Virus record (IMG/VR): IMGVR_UViG_2531839588_000017 | Location: 1 to 6,575 of that record | Source of the DNA: a virus | Lineage: Duplodnaviria > Heunggongvirae > Uroviricota > Caudoviricetes | Reading direction: 5' to 3' (one strand) | DNA length: 6,575 nucleotides | Shown: one piece after another, positions 424 through 6,575 of the stretch | How the letters are laid out: each line of letters opens with the position of its first letter | How positions within the stretch are numbered: position 1 is the first letter of the stretch | Notes under the pieces: model-generated | What the model was told of the DNA's origin: nothing | The model's input: the letters and a program-made list of their open reading frames with translations, nothing else | The model's database searches: none | Made by a program: the position numbers and the translations under genes

Positions 424-1382
424 TTACTCCTTGTCCATTGCGTACAGCCCATTAACCAGAGCAAACTGTGGCACCCCGTCCGCGATGAAAGTCGCATTAA
501 CTCCGCAGGCTTCGCGGATAGCGGGTGCCACAATCTCCGCCCCGCCACCGACAACCATCACCCGCCCGTAACCCGAAAACCCCGCCAGCGCGCGGATCAC
601 TCGTTGTTTCAGTGTTTCTTCCTTTTCACGAATAACCGCCATCAGGCTGGCGTAATGCGCGTCATTGTGGATGTGCTGGCGCAACCAGGCTTCATCATGG
701 CGATGTTCGATAATGGTATTGGCGATGTGGTGACTGGTGCGCATACCGTTAGTGGCCATCACCGACAGTACGGCATCGGCCATCAGGGAAACGCCTACGT
801 GTGGATCGCAAAACACCTGGCTGATACCTGCCAGTTGTCCCTGAACCTTTGCCACATCCAGCGTGGTTCCGCCTAAATCCACAATCAGCAGGGATTCAAA
901 CGGACTCATGTCAGCCAGTGCTTTAAAACCAGCCGGAATGGATTCAGGCATAACCCGTACGTTACGGATAGTGAATGCTTTTCCGTTCTGGTACGCCACC
1001 GGGCGCATGACGTTGCTTTTTTGCGGTTGATGTTGGCCATGTCCGGCTGTGCGTTTGTGTCGAAATACTCGCTCAGTGGCAGGGTGACAACCACATCCAC
1101 TTCCTGTGGTGTGATGCCTGATTTGACCAGCGCGTGATGAATGGCAATTACATTCACATCGCTGTACTGGTATTGCGTGTCGGTCGTCTGGACAAAGCGA
1201 TCGCTGACCGGATCAAAACCATAGCGCACGCCATCAAGCATGTAGTTCGCGGGCTGCGTGCCACCGAACGGCGCAGACCATTCCGACTTGAAGCTGTTCG
1301 GGCTGATGGCGTTGCGGCGTTCGCCGTTCTCAGTCCATGCCAGCTTGATGTTGGTGGAGCCGTCGTCGATACAAATTTTCAT
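424..1382 (-). pseudogene. parM: ParM/StbA-like actin-type segregation ATPase interrupted by one frameshift (fragments 906..1382 and 424..1008)
   Basis: N-terminal fragment MKICIDDGSTNIKL... carries the phosphate-1 motif DDGST; C-terminal fragment carries phosphate-2 IVDLGGTTLDV and the adenosine motif VVGGGAEIV. Both fragments match R1 ParM from recall. The frame changes right after ...NINRKK at the plus-strand T6 run 1017-1022; one extra base there restores a single ORF of about 319 aa. AAGGA Shine-Dalgarno 9 nt upstream of the ATG at 1382. Confidence 0.75.
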
Positions 1383-1406
1383 GTCGCTTTTCCTTATGTT
1401 GATTAA

Positions 1407-2003
1407 TTAATCGGTTACAGGATTTTTAAATCCCGCTTTTGCCTGTTTTGTGCGCGCTTCATATATCGCGGCGCGTTTTTGCTCATTTACGGGATTTGTG
1501 AGTCCCGTTTCTGTCTGTTTTTTGTTTCCACTGGTCAGGCCACCCCGCAGCAGGTCTGCTTTGCGGTGGGCGCGTTCAGTGGTTTCACTGATTCTCTGTG
1601 CGTGCTCTGCGTCACGGATGGCGCGCAGCATGTCAGAAAGCACGGTAACGGGGGTTTTCATGGTGTTCTGGTCCTGCTGAAGTGTGGATGCCAGACGTGC
1701 GGCGGCTTCGGGGTCTGATGCCCCCAGTTGTTCCAGATAGCTGGCGACCGGGTTATGGCGGATCTCTGTGCTGCTTACGCCGTGATTACGGCTCAGGCGC
1801 TGCCAGAGCTGCGTGATTCGGCTGTCCGGGCGGGTATCCGGTTTGCGTACAATTTCAAATCCCTGCGGTGCAATGATGCTGCCGTCAACGTACAGGCTGC
1901 CGCCCCGTAACAGGTGCTGCATCTGCTGTTCACCGATATGCAGGCCGAGAGATTCAGCAGACTCCCGCCATTCTTTAGCGAGTAATTCGTGGTTATCAGG
2001 CAA
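1407..2003 (-). CDS. Hypothetical protein (198-aa ORF); may be the displaced C-terminus of the gpA-like gene and/or contain a separate small gene
   Basis: Open frame ending 24 nt upstream of parM. The track start is a TTG and the same frame has stops immediately upstream (2004-2144), so the true start is unclear. An internal ATG at 1659-1661 (MKTPVTVLSDMLRAIRDAEH...) could start an 84-aa product. The 3' end overlaps dyad repeats that may be parMR control sites. Confidence 0.4.
   Translation of the reverse strand: MPDNHELLAKEWRESAESLGLHIGEQQMQHLLRGGSLYVDGSIIAPQGFEIVRKPDTRPDSRITQLWQRLSRNHGVSSTEIRHNPVASYLEQLGASDPEAAARLASTLQQDQNTMKTPVTVLSDMLRAIRDAEHAQRISETTERAHRKADLLRGGLTSGNKKQTETGLTNPVNEQKRAAIYEARTKQAKAGFKNPVTD
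1420..1507 (-). promoter_or_regulatory. Candidate parMR promoter/operator or centromere-like sites (two dyad-symmetric 16-bp motifs)
   Basis: GGATTT-N5-TCCCG occurs twice (1420-1435 and 1492-1507), each internally dyad-symmetric (GGATTT/AAATCC; CGGGA/TCCCG), 40-125 bp upstream of the parM start. There is no conventional intergenic region upstream of parM to hold a parC-type site. Confidence 0.25.
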
Positions 2004-2533
2004 AGGCCGCTGCTGTTTGCGGCTCTGTGTCCAGTCTGCATTTCATCACTGCTGTTTTTTGCCTGTTTGTCACGAGCGAACGCATCAGCGCCCGGCGTTC
2101 GTGCCGTTTCAGTGAGCGCACCATTCGTTCACTCAACGCCGTCAGGAGCTGCGGCCACGGTGCTGGCCGTTCTTCCGGCTGTTCTGTCCCGTTGTTGTCG
2201 TTTCCTGTACACGGGGACAGTTATTGCCACGAGTCCAAGGGGCGGCAGGGCCGCCCTGAAGGTCAAAACCATTTTCGCGGGCGCTGTCTTCCGCTTCCGG
2301 TTTACGTCTTACCAGCTTCCAGTTATCCGGATGCGTGCACACCGGGAGATCCCCGATGAGGGCGACCAGATCCCGTAAATCTGTACGCTCTGTTCGCCGT
2401 AATCGTTCAGCCATCGCGAGGTCGTAGGCGGTGCGAATCAGGTAGTCTTGCGGGAACAAGTACGCCCCCTGTTTTCATGTAGGGGCAAAACACCGGCATC
2501 AGCGGCAGCGAGTACCGCATCCATTGCGTCTCT
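2001..2533 (-). pseudogene. C-terminal remnant of the gpA-like replication initiator, split over at least two frames
   Basis: Protein-like translation continues from the core ORF in another frame (2460-2535: ...WMRYSLPLMPVFCPYMKTGGVLVP), then in a third frame (2459 down to about 2240: QDYLIRTAYDLAMAERLRRTERTDLRDLVALIGDLPVCTHPDNWKLVRRKPEAEDSARENGFDL). In-frame stops at 2142-2144 and below interrupt that frame, while a different frame is open from 2238 to 2001. Confidence 0.35.
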
Positions 2534-3469
2534 TCAGCGTTGCGGGCCTTCCGGGTTGCGTGCCATCTGGCTGGCAAGGCGGCGCAGTTCACGCCACACC
2601 TGACGGGAGGGGATGCCAAAGAACTGGAACTGGCGGACCCGGTGAAGGCGCGCCCAGCCGATGGCGCGCTCCACGCTCTCGGCCATTGATTTTCCGGTTT
2701 CGTGGTCAACGCGTGGTTTGCCCGTTTTCGGGTCGATTCCATCCACGGCGCGGCTGTCCAGGTTTTTTCCGATGTAGGTGGCGATGTAGCTGGTTGGCGT
2801 GCCTTTGGAGCCGTCGACGTACTCCACCTTAAAGCGCGGAGTAATATCATTGCCCAGCTCGTGGCGGTCTTCCTGAATGGCAATATCGCGGGTGATGGCC
2901 ACGATGCTGTCGATTTCTTCCGGATGAGCAAAGACCATCATATGCCAGTGCACGGTGCCGTCATGGTGAGGCTCCACCGTGCGGATGCCATACCAGCGCA
3001 GGCCGTCGCGGTTCAGTTTTTTGCGGACCGCCGCAAAAAACGTGTTAACCAGGTAATCGCTGGAGTCGCGCATGGTGGCCCCGTTCCATTTGGGATTCGG
3101 ATGACCGTTCTCTGTTGTGGCGTGGTATTTTGACGGGCAGGTGACAGTCAGAAACACCGCTTTGTCGCCACGGGCTTCGGCCAGAAGTTCCAGTCCCTTC
3201 ATGGTGGCCATCATTTCTGCCTTACGGTGAACCGGGTTACTTACTCCCGCGTAATACACCGTCTCGAGATCAATCGTGAACCCGTCTTCATTTTCCAGCA
3301 TGAAACTTTTCAGGAAATCGCGTGTTTTCTCGCGCTGTGCGCGAAACTCGCTTAACGCGTCCTGGCTCAGATAGGGTGATGTTTTTCTGGAAACCAGACA
3401 GGCGGCGCGGAGTTGTTCTTCTCTCCACTCCAACGTAACAGCCACAGTTTGCGTTTCCACCATCCGCAC
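2534..3469 (-). CDS. Rolling-circle replication initiator, P2 gpA / phiX174 A family (HUH endonuclease core, 311-aa fragment)
   Basis: Contains ...TCPSKYH..., the HUH motif VEPHHDGTVHWHMMVF (about 2942-2950) and the paired catalytic tyrosines SYIATYIGKN (YxxxY, about 2774-2788), followed by ...QVWRELRRL. The track start is a GTG with an in-frame TGA directly upstream (3473-3475), so the ORF looks N-terminally truncated. Confidence 0.75.
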   Translation of the reverse strand: MRMVETQTVAVTLEWREEQLRAACLVSRKTSPYLSQDALSEFRAQREKTRDFLKSFMLENEDGFTIDLETVYYAGVSNPVHRKAEMMATMKGLELLAEARGDKAVFLTVTCPSKYHATTENGHPNPKWNGATMRDSSDYLVNTFFAAVRKKLNRDGLRWYGIRTVEPHHDGTVHWHMMVFAHPEEIDSIVAITRDIAIQEDRHELGNDITPRFKVEYVDGSKGTPTSYIATYIGKNLDSRAVDGIDPKTGKPRVDHETGKSMAESVERAIGWARLHRVRQFQFFGIPSRQVWRELRRLASQMARNPEGPQR

Positions 3470-3678
3470 AGGTCAGGCGAAGGATTGCGCCCGGCAGCAG
3501 TCCGTTCCGGTTCGCTCTTGTTCAGGCTCTAATGTGGGGCATGGTGCAGGGTAAGCATCGGCCAGCATCGTAGCCTTCACTTACATCCATGGTCAGTCGC
3601 CATCTGCCCAACCATCCAGAGTTCAAGGTGCTGCTGAACATGCCGCGTCATGGTGGCCAGCGTCTGTATCTGGTGTTG

Positions 3679-4215
3679 TTAGCTGCGGCAGGTAAAGCAA
3701 ATCGTCCAGGCGTTCGCGCCGGCAAGGGAGCGATAACCCGGTGTCAGCCAGGCGTCGTGCGTCCAGACGTTCGAATATTTTGCGCAGGGTTCCGGGCTAG
3801 CGTTCGCCTGCCAGCTCTTTTTGCCTTTCCGGCGATCGCTTCCTGTTTTTTGCGCAGGAAAGAGAGGTGGCGAATAAGCGGATCGCGCAGATAGGACAGG
3901 CAGTGCCTTTAGTGTGGCAAAGGCACGGGCTACTGGGTCTTGTTCTGTTGCCCGGCGCTTACTGATGATGCTCTGTGCCAGCTTTTCACGCTGTCCGGCT
4001 TCCTCAAGGGATGCCATGAGTTTTTTACCCATGGCGGATTGTGCGAAAAAGGCTTCTTCCTTCGCTTCCTGTTCTTCCTGTGCCCTTTTGTCTGCCTCAA
4101 GGTAGTAACGGATGGCGCGTTGCAGGTCGGTTTCAGTTTCCTGCCTGCGCTCCGTAAACCTGGCCGGATCAATGGCTGGCCGTGGTTCATTCCAGCTCCA
4201 TGCAAACTCGCTCAT
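3679..4215 (-). CDS. Probable N-terminal fragment of the gpA-like replication gene (hypothetical protein if independent)
   Basis: Sub-ORF of the 3679..4242 track ORF, starting at the ATG at 4213-4215, which overlaps the TGA stop of the upstream 129-aa ORF (ATGA). The first 100 or so residues are protein-like (MSEFAWSWNEPRPAIDPARFTERRQETETDLQRAIRYYLEADKRAQEEQEAKEEAFFAQS...); the distal part is low-complexity, suggesting frame loss before the stop at 3679. Assignment to gpA is by position and inference only. Confidence 0.4.
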   Translation of the reverse strand: MSEFAWSWNEPRPAIDPARFTERRQETETDLQRAIRYYLEADKRAQEEQEAKEEAFFAQSAMGKKLMASLEEAGQREKLAQSIISKRRATEQDPVARAFATLKALPVLSARSAYSPPLFPAQKTGSDRRKGKKSWQANASPEPCAKYSNVWTHDAWLTPGYRSLAGANAWTICFTCRS

Positions 4216-4601
4216 GGCTGGTATCCCGTCACGCGCTGCCACTCCTGCGAGAAGATGGCGGAAAGGCGGTTAAATTCAGCGGTGTATTCACTCAGCGAGG
4301 CACACCCGCCAGCAGTGCGATGCGCCAGCATTGCCGCGAATACGGAGGCCGGGGAGTCGTAATACGCCAGCAGTGATTCGCCGTGTGGTGTCAGGCAGTG
4401 CAACGCCAGCCCGTGTGGTGTGAAGTCCACGCGGTAGCAGTCGTCTACTGTGAAATAAAGGGTGTCCGCATTCTCCGGTTTTGTGGTGCGTGCTCTGTTG
4501 TCACGACCACGGATGTAGAGATCAAATAATCCCTGAAGAATGGGAGCCAGACGGGTGTCCTGTGTGCGCACCCATCTTGTGAAGTCATGAGCGTCAATCA
4601 T
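4212..4601 (-). CDS. Hypothetical protein, 129 aa
   Basis: ATG at 4599-4601 with a weak AAAGAG Shine-Dalgarno about 10 nt upstream; stop overlaps the next ORF's ATG (ATGA at 4212-4215). Protein-like composition (MIDAHDFTRWVRTQDTRLAPILQGLFDLYIRGRDN...). No family recognised. Confidence 0.55.
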   Translation of the reverse strand: MIDAHDFTRWVRTQDTRLAPILQGLFDLYIRGRDNRARTTKPENADTLYFTVDDCYRVDFTPHGLALHCLTPHGESLLAYYDSPASVFAAMLAHRTAGGCASLSEYTAEFNRLSAIFSQEWQRVTGYQP

Positions 4602-4673
4602 GCTGCAATTCTCTTTACTACAGATGTGCGAAGGCCTCCCGCCGCAAGGTGCAGGAAAGGCCTGGAACAGGAA

Positions 4674-4904
4674 TTAATGGAGTTTGTTTTGCTGCTGAAA
4701 GAGCTGCTGAAGCTCGCGCAGATCATCCGCCAGATAGCTGAAAACAGCGGATGAATAGAGGTTTGAAAGTTCGCAGCTACGCTCATGCAGCATATTGATG
4801 TGCATGATTTTAGCGACGCGGAATGCGCGGGAAAGTCTGCGGTTGATTTCAGTCTGGATGTGACGACGCTCCGCGATAGCGCGGTGCTGTTTGCGGTTTG
4901 CCAT
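4674..4904 (-). CDS. Small basic protein, 76 aa; first ORF downstream of the antisense-RNA locus (positional analogue of P1 icd / P4 epsilon, identity not established)
   Basis: ATG at 4902-4904 preceded by AGAGG about 9 nt upstream and a 6-bp hairpin (4925-4930 / 4939-4944). Translation MANRKQHRAIAERRHIQTEINRRLSRAFRVAKIMHINMLHERSCELSNLYSSAVFSYLADDLRELQQLFQQQNKLH. Confidence 0.55.
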   Translation of the reverse strand: MANRKQHRAIAERRHIQTEINRRLSRAFRVAKIMHINMLHERSCELSNLYSSAVFSYLADDLRELQQLFQQQNKLH

Positions 4905-4950
4905 GGTGTTTGGCCTCTTCGTTTGTGAGTTTTTGGATACTCACCAACCA

Positions 4951-4968
4951 GAGTTGAGAATCTCGGGG
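4951..4968 (-). promoter_or_regulatory. Sense target site C for the antisense RNA (transcript 5'-CCCCGAGAUUCUCAAC-3')
   Basis: Plus-strand GAGTTGAGAATCTCGGGG. Shares GTTGAGAATC(C/T)CGG with the copy at 5127-5143 and is complementary to the B element at 4981-4993. Lies about 50 nt upstream of the 76-aa ORF start. Confidence 0.4.
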
Positions 4969-4976
4969 TGGCGAGA

Positions 4977-5038
4977 CGTACGGGGTTCTCAACACCGGCA
5001 AACGAAGAAACCGGCCCGACCGAAGTCGGCCCCGTACG
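4977..5038 (-). ncRNA. Candidate c4/CI-like antisense immunity RNA (structured core)
   Basis: Minus-strand transcript has a 9-bp closing stem (CGUACGGGG at 5038-5030 pairing with CCCCGUACG at 4985-4977) enclosing a CCGAC-UUCG-GUCGG tetraloop hairpin, a short CCGG/CCGG hairpin, and the element GUUGAGAA, which is complementary to the two flanking AUUCUCAAC sites. No protein-like ORF in the segment. Confidence 0.45.
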
Positions 5039-5086
5039 CCCCACCATAATTCGTGTGCGAAAAAGACGTGGCAATACAGTACGCAC

Positions 5087-5107
5087 AAAAAAACCGCTGG
5101 CGCGGTT
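5087..5107 (-). terminator. Intrinsic terminator between sense site A and the RNA core
   Basis: Minus-strand hairpin AACCGC-GCCA-GCGGTT (plus 5092-5107) followed by a U-run (plus A-run 5087-5093), about 120 nt downstream of the predicted end of the 99-aa gene. Confidence 0.45.
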
Positions 5108-5126
5108 GTGCGCTTCGTTTGTCAGC

Positions 5127-5143
5127 AGGTTGAGAATCCCGGC
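5127..5143 (-). promoter_or_regulatory. Sense target site A for the antisense RNA (transcript 5'-CCGGGAUUCUCAACC-3')
   Basis: Plus-strand AGGTTGAGAATCCCGG; 12 of 13 positions complementary to the B element, same orientation as site C. Confidence 0.4.
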
Positions 5144-5229
5144 ACCCGTTTTATGAGGTGCAGCAGAAATGTAACCTGACTGATTGCGGCATGGCAAGCG
5201 GTTTTTTTGTGTGTGCATGCTCTGATTTC

Positions 5230-5530
5230 TTACTGGTTCAGAAAAAAAATCAAAAACCTTGTCAATGCGTTGCAACAGCTCTTGCTGTATTGCTTCCGGC
5301 GTTTCCGGTTCGCCTGGCGCCTCCAATGTCGCGCAGAAATCAGCGATTTCATGATGGAGCGTCAGGCGAATGGCAGGAGCCGTGGTTCTGGCGTGCTCCA
5401 GCTCATCCAGCAATGCCAGCACCGCAGACGGCGAGAGCATTGCGCGAAATGCCAGTAATTTTTGAGGTGTTGCCATTCGTTGCAGGGCAAATGCCAGTTC
5501 GCGTAGCTTCTGGTGGTTGATGGTGCTCAT
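5230..5530 (-). CDS. Hypothetical protein, about 99 aa (the literal ORF runs on to 4598 with no stop)
   Basis: ATG at 5528-5530 overlaps the TGA of the upstream wHTH gene (ATGA). The first 96 residues are protein-like (MSTINHQKLRELAFALQRMATPQKLLAFRAMLSPSAVLALLDELEHARTT...QQELLQRIDKVFDFF). After the plus-strand A8 run at 5242-5249 the translation turns low-complexity (S/T/R-rich) and crosses the RNA locus and the 76-aa gene. One base fewer in the run gives ...DFFLNQ-stop at 5230-5232. The end coordinate is inferred. Confidence 0.45.
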
Positions 5531-5793
5531 GTTCTGGCTTCCTTCAGTAGCTGGTTAAACATGTGAGTAAGTGGATTGCTACACCCGAACGGCATCGGGT
5601 TTACGTGGTAAGAAGCCTGGCCTCCAGTTTTGCGAGCGCGACCACCTGTGCTGCGGTTTGTTCTGATGACTAAGCCGCCGCGCCAAAGTTGGCGTAACTC
5701 AGCATTAATGGCTGTGGTTGGAGTATTCAGTGCTGCTGCGATTTCTCCGCCGCTACAACCCGGATGGGTAGCGATGTAGTCCAGAATGGTCAT
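5527..5793 (-). CDS. Winged helix-turn-helix DNA-binding protein, 88 aa
   Basis: ATG at 5791-5793 overlaps the stop of the upstream 67-aa ORF (ATGA). LDYIATHPGCSGGEIAAALNTPTTAINAELRQLWRGGLVIRT has the helix-turn-helix-wing pattern of MarR/ArsR-like wHTH proteins. Confidence 0.6.
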   Translation of the reverse strand: MTILDYIATHPGCSGGEIAAALNTPTTAINAELRQLWRGGLVIRTNRSTGGRARKTGGQASYHVNPMPFGCSNPLTHMFNQLLKEART

Positions 5794-5993
5794 CTGCGTG
5801 GCTCCTGTACCTGTCGGATAAGATTCACCCGCGCCACGTTGGTGGCGCAGAAATAAGTGCCGTCAGTGAGGTAGATGTGGTGTGCATCCTTTTCCGAACG
5901 ATGTTTGTCGATAGTGGTAATCAGTCGTTCGTCGACCTCGTATTCGCGCCCTCTGGAGGTAAAGCGAACGACGGGAAAATGCTTAATTGCCAT
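5790..5993 (-). CDS. Hypothetical small protein, 67 aa
   Basis: ATG at 5991-5993 with AAAGGGGG Shine-Dalgarno 5-6 nt upstream; stop overlaps the next ATG. Translation MAIKHFPVVRFTSRGREYEVDERLITTIDKHRSEKDAHHIYLTDGTYFCATNVARVNLIRQVQEPRR; no family recognised. Confidence 0.55.
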   Translation of the reverse strand: MAIKHFPVVRFTSRGREYEVDERLITTIDKHRSEKDAHHIYLTDGTYFCATNVARVNLIRQVQEPRR

Positions 5994-6016
5994 TGCGCCC
6001 CCTTTGTCCAGTAACC

Positions 6017-6427
6017 CTATGCGTTAAATACGGTGTGTCGGGCGTCATCAATGAATGCAACTTGAGAGCGCTCTATCAGGCGGAGATTTGTCAGAATTTC
6101 TGATTCCCTTATGGGGTGAGGAGTGATCAGGTATTTATCCTGTAACCCGGCGATAATGGTGTATCGCTGTAGCTCCGAGCCAATTGTGTAAATAAGGCGT
6201 CCGGTGTTAGACAAATCCAGTCCGGTGACTGGTTGTGTTCTGAGAACCGCCAGTTCAGCATCCTGTTTTGCGATAATTTCGGCTGCTTCTGCCGTGACTC
6301 TTGCGACTATCAGTGTGTGGGTTGCGACGTCCATATGATTATTTGCTAGGGCTTTTTTCGCTACTTCGTTTTCTGTCTTTGAAATTTCTTTCAGTGCTCT
6401 GATGATACCTTCTTCTTTTGCGTGCAT
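6017..6427 (-). CDS. Hypothetical protein, 136 aa (first gene of the leftward small-protein operon)
   Basis: ATG at 6425-6427 with GGAG about 9 nt upstream, directly downstream of an AT-rich intergenic region. Protein-like, helix-rich composition (MHAKEEGIIRALKEISKTENEVAKKALANNHMDVATHTLIVARVTAEAAEIIAKQDAELAVLRTQ...); no family recognised. Confidence 0.6.
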   Translation of the reverse strand: MHAKEEGIIRALKEISKTENEVAKKALANNHMDVATHTLIVARVTAEAAEIIAKQDAELAVLRTQPVTGLDLSNTGRLIYTIGSELQRYTIIAGLQDKYLITPHPIRESEILTNLRLIERSQVAFIDDARHTVFNA

Positions 6428-6575
6428 TTTTGTATCTCCGTTATTTGCGTGTGCGAATACCTCCGTTAATACGGATGGTTTTCACGTTTTCTTATTTAAT
6501 TTGATGTTTTATTTGTATCGTTATTCACCAGTGAAAAAACGTTCAATCTTTTTTACTGAATGAATAATTCGCATA
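6428..6575 (-). promoter_or_regulatory. AT-rich upstream control region, presumed promoter/operator for the leftward operon
   Basis: AT-rich non-coding stretch upstream of the first minus-strand gene. Contains a direct repeat CTCCGTTA (6436-6443 and 6461-6468) and a short dyad CCGT-TAAT-ACGG (6463-6474); several sigma70-like hexamers are possible but none is clearly best. Confidence 0.3.

Follow-up and report, generated by a model that had tools for sequence, protein, structure and literature searches.

The stretch of DNA analysed here, the window, covers 6,575 nucleotides and carries on its minus strand four small genes packed head to tail: a gene of 136 codons (6017..6427), a gene of 67 codons (5790..5993), a gene of 88 codons for a minimal winged helix-turn-helix (wHTH) protein (5527..5793) and a gene whose family-typical extent is 99 codons (5230..5530; phrog_4144, E 3e-60). 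They are preceded by an AT-rich intercistronic leader of 93 nt with 33% GC (6428..6520), which itself follows the 3' end (the last 18 codons and the stop, 6521..6575) of a hydrophobic ORF of 37 aa, placed in the same operon by alignment with P88, 520873, phiSM and the E. coli locus L002. In tblastn, the 37-aa peptide finds its matches directly upstream of the block in related loci. Past the 99-aa gene, still on the minus strand, come an isrK-type sRNA gene (5087..5161; Rfam RF01394, 62 bits against a gathering score of 50), for which scans gave a promoter-like site at 5197-5168 and a terminator-like site at 5107-5092, a C4-type antisense RNA gene (4964..5051; RF01695, 79.2 bits against 45) and the gene of a 76-aa product named 'derepression protein' in RefSeq (4674..4904; phrog_3688), whose Shine-Dalgarno (SD) sequence overlaps a C4 target site in an alignment of such sites.

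An early operon of P88-like prophages

The block sits between cox and the replication gene A, co-oriented with them, in P2-type prophages, understood here as those having int, C and cox together with capsid, terminase and tail genes of P2 type; two such E. coli prophages show it in their annotation. The order of the operon, on a single strand, is cox, DUF4761, a 92-aa ORF, DUF4754, the 37-aa ORF, the 136-aa gene where present, the 67-, 88- and 99-aa genes, variable cargo, the isrK/C4 RNAs, the 76-aa gene, a 129-aa ORF, gene A and parM. This order is seen in complete P2-type prophages adjoining pheA, in phages P88 and phiSM and in a P88-like ST131 phage, and the fragment of gene A that falls within the window is readily recognized (Pfam Phage_GPA, E 2e-103). 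The host element is probably a P88-like P2-family prophage of E. coli (genus Xuanwuvirus, Peduoviridae), with the block as a set of accessory genes in its early lytic operon. The four genes are the middle segment of this longer cox-to-gene-A operon, not a separate unit, and they are widespread, being found in 1282 of 5426 complete E. coli genomes, about one quarter. To be sure, they are real but ordinary genes that public records already annotate. A search of the literature on P88, phiSM, the protein accessions and the genus name found no functional data on any of the four. Both P88 and phiSM are cultivable, and phiSM lysogenises K-12 (PMC6456863).

An initial annotation, made from the letters of the sequence, had read the block as an operon of its own behind an 'AT-rich control region'. 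It is here that this reading gave way: the region consists of the intercistronic spacer plus the end of a co-oriented upstream ORF, and P88 and 520873, which both lack the 136-aa gene, have this same spacer ahead of their 67-aa gene. A consensus scan flagged no sigma-70-like site on the minus strand, either in the leader or over the span from cox to the RNA module. This silence is weak evidence, as the scan also missed the early promoter expected near cox. Among terminator-like sites from cox to the RNA module, isrK alone has one with an uninterrupted T-run behind it; two weaker matches, of which one falls within the 136-aa gene, were discounted, and the minus strand of the window shows no terminator-like site upstream of the leader. 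A 5-bp hairpin in the leader, at 6462-6475, is conserved, its inner pair being T-A in 29 loci and C-G in 11, a single compensatory change. That a promoter or operator within AT-rich positions 6428-6575 makes the block an independent transcription unit is quite improbable, even granting the low GC of the spacer, the conserved hairpin and the insensitivity of the scan. Against these stand the absence of any -35/-10 match in that scan and of an upstream terminator-like site in the window, the coding nature of the window's last 55 nt, and the presence of the same spacer where there is no 136-aa gene.

The same annotation had placed the block where P2-type elements keep such genes, upstream of an immunity RNA, and this is borne out by the cox-to-A slot, 5' of a C4-type antisense RNA. 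A functional tie between the two did not survive comparison: 520873, with the 67-aa and wHTH genes, and phage Chuche, with the 67-aa gene, both lack isrK and C4, so that the RNA module is separable from the protein block and no part of it. Likeness to the c4 immunity of P1/P7 (immI: c4, icd, ant) and to the CI RNA of P4 therefore concerns the module, not the proteins. As in those systems, the C4-family RNA has two loop sequences with matching target sites, two lying upstream and two downstream, the last one overlapping the SD of the next gene; the loops covary with these two pairs of sites in five phages, and complementary repeats are present in the window. Unlike in P1 and P4, the regulated gene codes for the 76-aa protein, with which tblastn (E up to 0.01) hit neither P4 nor P1.

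Closer to the block itself are the accessory ORFs between cox/apl and gene A of P2 and 186, which we take to be, in P2, orf78 and orf80-83. They occupy the same slot in the same orientation, are short and tightly packed or overlapping, and are served by an early promoter ahead of gene A. By contrast, tblastn with the 88-, 67- and 136-aa products returned no P2 or 186 record among all matches, and the two sets would thus be different genes in one slot. The P88-like operon also differs in having the isrK/C4 module and parM, which classical P2, to our knowledge, does not.

Coding status, junctions and the smaller products

Of the four minus-strand ORFs initially reported, those of 136, 67 and 88 aa stand as described, while the fourth is 310 aa long in this window (4598-5530), not about 99. 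In most relatives it ends with ...DFFLNQ* after 99 codons. The window shares with loci L001 and L016 an extra T in a homopolymer (T8, against T7 elsewhere; A8 on the plus strand, 5242-5249), which shifts the TAA at 5230-5232 out of frame and so produces the read-through. Two outcomes had been named in advance as speaking against the block, lack of conservation as coding sequence and assignment to unrelated housekeeping families, and neither came about. The ORFs all evolve as coding sequence, with pairwise pN/pS below 1 (0.18 for 67 aa, 0.25 for 99 aa, 0.28 for 88 aa and 0.43 for 136 aa) and, for the 67-, 88- and 99-aa ORFs, variable sites that are mostly third codon positions; profile searches assigned no product to a housekeeping family.

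The plus-strand TCAT at 5790-5793 and at 5527-5530 is ATGA on the minus strand, and the stop/start overlaps noticed from the start are kept, together with an SD-like motif before each start, in 85 of 85 related loci. To deduce 'fixed stoichiometry' from them is an over-reading, since four-base overlaps are the commonest junction type in phage operons, each downstream gene has its own SD, and the ATGA chain of P88 extends to unrelated cargo genes. Adjacency suggests that the 67-, 88- and 99-aa products may interact. The 67-aa gene and the wHTH family each occur apart from the other, which argues against an obligate complex. Only phrog_19053 points to a fusion, in that it covers both the 67- and the 88-aa product, and it could be a gene-calling artefact; the longer relatives of the 88-aa protein proved to be frameshifted or deletion products, with no natural 67-88 fusion among its homologues.

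The 67-aa gene, coding for a small five-strand beta protein, is an ORFan restricted to the P88-like genus. An exhaustive HMMER search with its profile retrieved 17 clusters, all of small proteins of the same family, plus a 1016-aa repeat protein treated as spurious, only 35 of its residues being matched. A species-level genome scan for the family gave three loci, too few for co-occurrence statistics.

The 99-aa product carries a weak Ead/Ea22 motif. Against a cut-off of 27, Pfam Ead_Ea22 (PF13935) scores 22.8 bits for the 99-aa form, 20.5 for P88 gp10 and 18.6 for the 310-aa form of the window, over 24-27 of 139 model positions, and the protein is accordingly left out of that family. Sequence comparison with solved structures gave nothing under E 0.3. 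In Klebsiella phage RothD a wHTH homologue appears paired with a protein annotated as Ead/Ea22-like; homology of this pairing could not be demonstrated, as BLASTP failed to align that protein with the 99-aa product (E up to 100). More generally, genes next to the wHTH homologues in Stx1_499 and RothD showed no BLASTP similarity to the 99- or the 67-aa product, and an NCBIfam scan of the block products returned no informative match.

The winged-helix protein and the 136-aa cassette

The initial annotation held that only the 88-aa product has a recognisable fold signature, and here it was right. Pfam MarR_2 (PF12802) reaches 29.1 bits, for a cut-off of 27, over residues 2-53 only; PF01047, with 17 bits, stays under its cut-off of 24.6; a sequence search of the profile against solved structures gave one weak wHTH match. 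The protein would bind DNA, as this domain match just over threshold suggests. It matches phrog_1687 (E 6.9e-32), made of small phage wHTH proteins labelled 'MarR family'. In relatives it is 79-88 aa long. The core alone aligns with the MarR model, the remainder being a wing insertion, basic and Gly-rich in the protein of the window, and a short conserved tail, PFGCxNPLTxMFNQLLKEAR, of which an alignment finds the motif P-x-G-x-x-NP-[LM]-[TS]-x-[ML]-FNQ common to the homologues of Stx1_499 and RothD. A homologue was present in 32 phage records (all 32 records matching in tblastn), for example after the replication gene P in RothD, after bet in Serratia phage Eta and between cI and xis-int in Stx1_499. 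These are all early-region positions.

Proteins of the MarR family have some 140-150 aa, with N- and C-terminal helices that form the dimer and ligand-binding interface. The 88-aa protein shares with them the DNA-binding core and lacks the rest, having instead a phage-specific conserved tail; it does not have the architecture of a full-length MarR protein. The possibility that it is nonetheless a genuine MarR-type regulator, which lysogens express and which controls host 'fitness' genes, would draw on the Pfam score, marginally above its cut-off, and on a table of the phiSM paper where the product appears as 'MarR family transcriptional regulator - Fitness' (PMC6456863). That label is annotation only, the match is confined to the wHTH core, the dimerisation helices are missing at both ends, and the operon is expected to be repressed in lysogens, all of which makes this reading highly improbable. 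We give still less credit to the idea of a type II toxin-antitoxin module made up of the 67- and 88-aa genes, in which a small toxin would be joined by its DNA-binding antitoxin, however suggestive two small overlapping genes, one with a DNA-binding domain, may look. Pfam, NCBIfam, PHROGs and PADLOC gave no match to a toxin or antitoxin family, and the scan, of low sensitivity, found no promoter belonging to the pair. Moreover, the two genes part company: Chuche and Salmonella L092 have the 67-aa gene and no wHTH gene, L091 has a truncated wHTH gene, and no 67-aa gene adjoins the wHTH homologues of Stx1 and Klebsiella phages.

The 136-aa gene behaves as a swappable cassette. It belongs to phrog_9338 (E 1e-73), a PHROG of unknown function, and its product is modelled as a helical hairpin and a small beta domain (AF2, pLDDT 79), for which fold comparison gave no informative match. 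Present in 57 of 85 related loci, the gene is inserted precisely between the leader and the SD of the 67-aa gene. It has its own SD and apparently no room for a promoter of its own, since the leader is shared with phages lacking the gene. Alleles at this one site are 33-97% identical, for 81-96% in neighbouring genes, and the contrast runs both ways: in E. albertii an allele of 33% identity adjoins a 67-aa gene of 93%, and in phiSM an allele of 97% identity precedes 67- and 88-aa genes of 81% and 77%.

With alleles that are swapped and that diverge far more quickly than the genes around them, this cassette would be the member likeliest to face other phages or host defences. One may go further and see in one or more of the genes, the cassette above all, a factor of anti-defence, superinfection exclusion or inter-phage conflict, and not one that regulates the development of the phage itself. 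We consider this unlikely. The presence or absence of the gene among close relatives and the spread of its alleles between steadier flanks fit such a role, as do its GC content (46%, below the 52-53% of its neighbours), a pN/pS climbing to 0.92 across residues 52-68, the lack of an informative fold match and a place in an early operon, which suits a counter-defence gene. On the other hand, the overall pN/pS of 0.43 is that of purifying selection, the low-sensitivity scan found no promoter for expression from the prophage, and PADLOC defence models gave no match: in a search of PADLOC-DB the 136-, 67- and 99-aa products matched nothing, and the 88-aa product had weak wHTH-level matches only (E 0.007 or worse). 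Furthermore, we know of no description of this site among the defence hotspots of P2-like phages.

Proposed accessory functions early in the lytic cycle

Members of the block come and go. P88 lacks the 136-aa gene, and 520873 lacks it as well as the 99-aa gene and the RNAs; Chuche and a Salmonella prophage have no wHTH gene, and of the 99-aa gene they retain just a C-terminal part. Chuche's record presents it as a phage isolate from an environmental sample. Judging from such comparisons of gene content, all four are most likely early accessory factors that the phage can do without. After infection or induction, the cox-side early promoter would drive the transcription of all of them, and in the lysogen the C repressor would keep them silent. 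The 88-aa protein would then be a small DNA-binding winged-helix factor, not a ligand-sensing MarR, whose task early in the lytic cycle is to modulate either transcription, of phage or host, or DNA transactions; the beta protein of 67 aa and the helical protein of 99 aa may be co-produced as its partners.

In this role the set would resemble the exo-xis and nin accessory genes of lambdoid phages, dispensable for plaque formation and tuning the lysis-lysogeny balance or host takeover. The exo-xis genes (ea22, orf60a, orf61, orf63, orf73 and ea8.5) are likewise small and transcribed early. According to two papers, they are non-essential and shift the lysis-lysogeny balance, Ea22 favouring lysogeny (PMC7093339, PMC10834534). 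The weak motif of the 99-aa product and the lambdoid early-region slots of the wHTH homologues add to the likeness; unlike a genuine Ead/Ea22 protein, the 99-aa product matches that family below threshold, over 27 of its 139 positions. A bolder joint proposal would make the 136-aa cassette a new, fast-exchanged phage conflict gene (for counter-defence or exclusion) and the coupled 67-, 88- and 99-aa products an undescribed complex, built on a minimal winged helix, that sets the lysis-lysogeny balance in a prophage lineage among the commonest of E. coli; taken as a whole, it strikes us as distinctly unlikely.

What is gained here is a correct description of annotated hypothetical genes, which opens no long-standing question. 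Were the hypervariable 136-aa cassette a conflict gene, it would be an addition to the catalogue of counter-defence or exclusion factors; and any tuning of induction or lysogeny by the winged-helix protein or the genes beside it would alter how a very common prophage behaves, in pathogenic and commensal E. coli alike.

Place in the cox-to-A early operon

Prophage synteny and genome counts place the four minus-strand ORFs of the block (136, 67, 88 and 99 aa) midway along the early operon that runs from cox to gene A in a very common lineage of prophages. By megablast, the window is matched in 1475 of 5426 complete E. coli genomes and the block alone in 1282, the latter being 100% identical to NZ_CM151354.1. 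In two E. coli genomes the annotated context is a complete P2-type prophage adjoining pheA. Its early region, on one strand, runs from integrase, a C-like repressor, Cox, DUF4761, a hypothetical ORF, DUF4754 and a 37-aa ORF to the block, and then, on the same strand, to a 'derepression protein', a 129-aa ORF, the replication endonuclease (gene A), ParM and a partition protein. Among deposited phages, the nearest relatives are members of the genus Xuanwuvirus (family Peduoviridae), including vB_EcoM-705R2 (95% identical), P88, Citrobacter phage phiSM, P884B11 and 520873. The initial annotation had recognized the right type of element; the independent operon and the control region it proposed are not supported. 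The block contains nothing of a new kind: its genes are already annotated in RefSeq, GenBank and PHROGs, the 88-aa ORF carrying a 'MarR family' label in annotated E. coli prophages. The literature yielded no functional data on them, the P88 and phiSM papers holding annotation only and searches by accession and genus name being empty or irrelevant. This enterobacterial prophage block is also present, at 95% protein identity, in a 226-kb contig labelled Vagococcus sp. (NZ_JBQPOM010000071.1), probably through assembly contamination or mislabelling.

The AT-rich region ahead of the 136-aa gene had been taken for the control region opening the operon. It is partly coding sequence: the final 55 nt of the window belong to the 37-aa ORF, on the same strand, and cover its 3' end. 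The true intergenic spacer (6428-6520; 93 nt, 33% GC) also occurs in P88 and 520873, two phages without the 136-aa gene, and there stands immediately ahead of the 67-aa gene. On the minus strand, consensus scans detected nothing resembling a promoter in this leader or between cox and the downstream RNA module (isrK and C4), which is weak evidence because the expected early promoter was also missed. In the same scans, the isrK terminator was the only terminator-like site with an unbroken T-run; two weaker matches, one of them inside the 136-aa gene, were discounted. The leader also holds a conserved hairpin (6462-6475; 5 bp, 4-nt loop, no U-tract after it), reading TCCGT-ATTA-ACGGA in 29 loci and TCCGC-ATT[AC]-GCGGA in 11, so that its inner pair switches from T-A to C-G.

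Coding status, junctions and the fourth frame

The first three ORFs lie on the minus strand at 6017-6427 (136 aa), 5790-5993 (67 aa) and 5527-5793 (88 aa), and TCAT on the plus strand at 5790-5793 and 5527-5530 marks two minus-strand ATGA stop/start overlaps, exactly as first described. The fourth (minus strand, start 5530, end 4598) is 310 aa long in the window, not about 99. The original observation of four ORFs holds in large part. All four are coding. Codon-by-codon comparison of each ORF across 85 related loci places most variable sites at third codon positions and gives pN/pS values of 0.18 for the 67-aa ORF, 0.28 for the 88-aa ORF and 0.25 for the 99-aa ORF; for the 136-aa ORF, where ungapped 136-codon alleles only were used, the value is 0.43 overall and 0.92 over residues 52-68.

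Both ATGA junctions are conserved, in 85 of the 85 related loci. Part of this conservation is imposed by the overlap of the two frames; each start has its own Shine-Dalgarno-like motif (GGAG, GGGGG, AGGAG, AAGGAAG), so that strictly coupled translation is not required; and in P88 the chain of four-base overlaps runs on into unrelated cargo genes. As a result, the fixed stoichiometry read from the overlaps is not established.

In most related loci the fourth gene encodes a 99-aa protein ending in DFFLNQ and a stop. Here a homopolymer (A8 on the plus strand at 5242-5249, T8 on the coding strand, T7 in most relatives) is longer by one T, which shifts the frame three codons ahead of that stop and creates the 310-aa ORF (4598-5530) across isrK and C4. 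The T8 run is common to the window, NZ_CM151354.1 and another related locus (L016), so it represents a genuine allele or else a homopolymer error that has recurred. At 1013-3894 the window shows 67 deletions of 1-2 bases against NZ_CM151354.1, its closest E. coli record, clustered in gene A and parM and breaking the former into 187-, 311- and 198-aa ORFs and the latter in two; over 5231-6427 the two records are 100% identical. The deletions look less like biology than like mistakes left in a long-read assembly that had not been polished; real pseudogenisation is a possible alternative.

Residues 120-191 of the 310-aa ORF match Pfam Phage_ASH weakly (18.8 bits, cut-off 26), precisely over the isrK and C4 genes (4958-5173). 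The RefSeq 'ash family protein' pseudogene of NZ_CM151354.1 extends from the 99-aa gene start towards the same readthrough, and the 'similar to ash family protein' feature of PV468777 lies where aligned relatives have isrK and C4. These 'ash family' calls look like translations of RNA genes.

Exchange and loss of block genes

The 136-aa gene is a cassette, made of a Shine-Dalgarno motif, the ORF and a 23-nt spacer, inserted between the leader and the Shine-Dalgarno motif of the 67-aa gene, since the leader directly precedes the latter in P88 and 520873. These parts leave no space in which the cassette could carry its own promoter. The gene is found in 57 of 85 related loci, with homologues only in Escherichia, Shigella and Citrobacter (97% down to 55% identity). 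In E. albertii the identity of this gene falls to 33%, against 93% for the 67-aa gene beside it; in phiSM it is 97%, against 81% and 77% for the 67- and 88-aa neighbours. The gene has therefore been exchanged independently of its neighbours. In the structural model (pLDDT 79), residues 3-64 of its product form a helical hairpin and residues 78-134 a small beta domain; fold searches were uninformative, and Pfam, NCBIfam and PADLOC gave no match.

Losses also occur. Phage 520873 has the 37-, 67- and 88-aa genes followed almost directly by gene A, without the 99-aa gene or the RNA genes; phage Chuche and a Salmonella prophage have lost the winged-helix (wHTH) gene but not the 67-aa gene, and of the 99-aa protein only the C-terminal half survives, in a hybrid; in one locus the wHTH gene is truncated. 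These variants indicate that the block genes are individually dispensable, and they argue against both an obligate toxin-antitoxin pair and an obligate three-protein complex. The proposed tie to the RNA module fails as well, 520873 having the 67- and 88-aa genes without it. A second cargo site lies between the 99-aa gene and isrK (P88 locus, 4691-5721; phiSM locus, 4644-5195), holding a membrane protein and an SPFH/lipoprotein gene in P88, a 183-aa 'DNA binding protein' in phiSM and nothing in the window.

The RNA module and a role for the block

The RNA module is a separate unit, separable from the block. On the minus strand, isrK (5087-5161, 62 bits) and C4 (4964-5051, 79 bits) both score above their Rfam gathering scores. 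In an alignment of five phages (including P88, phiSM and loci L002, from E. coli, and L093), changes in two loop sequences of C4 are matched by changes at two sites within isrK and at two more downstream of C4 (window 4910-5145), as in TCTCAAC / GTTGAGA / TCTCAAC of the window and TTCCAC / GTGGAA / TTCCAC of P88; the second downstream site overlaps the Shine-Dalgarno motif of the 76-aa 'derepression protein' gene. Such three-way covariation is what immunity-specificity determinants of the P1 c4 / P4 CI type would be expected to show, and the module shares their design of loops and flanking targets, so that the label 'immunity RNA' was correct. A 21-nt inverted repeat (5081-5101 and 5194-5214, 90% complementary) flanks isrK, its upstream arm overlapping the isrK -35 element and being nearly invariant (one substitution in five phages). 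In early-operon transcripts this arm could base-pair with the isrK terminator, over its 3' half and U-tract; early transcripts would then read through to gene A, and those from the isrK promoter would terminate. The five-phage alignment offers no covariation for this repeat.

The wHTH call for the 88-aa product was right: Pfam MarR_2 matches at 29.1 bits (cut-off 27), over residues 2-53 only, so that it is not a full MarR, and phrog_1687 matches at E 7e-32. Beyond the core lie a basic, Gly-rich wing that varies in length and a near-invariant tail, PFGCxNPLTxMFNQLLKEAR. Homologues with the same core and tail occur in Stx1 phages (42% identical, between cI and xis-int), Klebsiella RothD (after replication gene P) and Serratia Eta (after bet), always in early regions. 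The family is one of minimal winged-helix phage proteins. The 99-aa product matches phrog_4144 and, below the cut-off (22.8 bits against 27), Pfam Ead_Ea22 over 27 of 139 positions; a search of solved structures found none for any relative.

We infer that the early promoter would drive the block genes, and only once infection or induction has occurred. The 88-aa protein would bind DNA and modulate transcription of the phage or host at an early stage, or DNA transactions; the 67- and 99-aa proteins may be produced together with it as partners. Of the four genes, the 136-aa cassette would be the likeliest to act between phages or against host defences. A model is offered by the lambdoid exo-xis region, where Ea22 is described as favouring lysogeny (PMC7093339): by analogy with its genes, the set would be a dispensable tuner of the lytic-lysogenic outcome.
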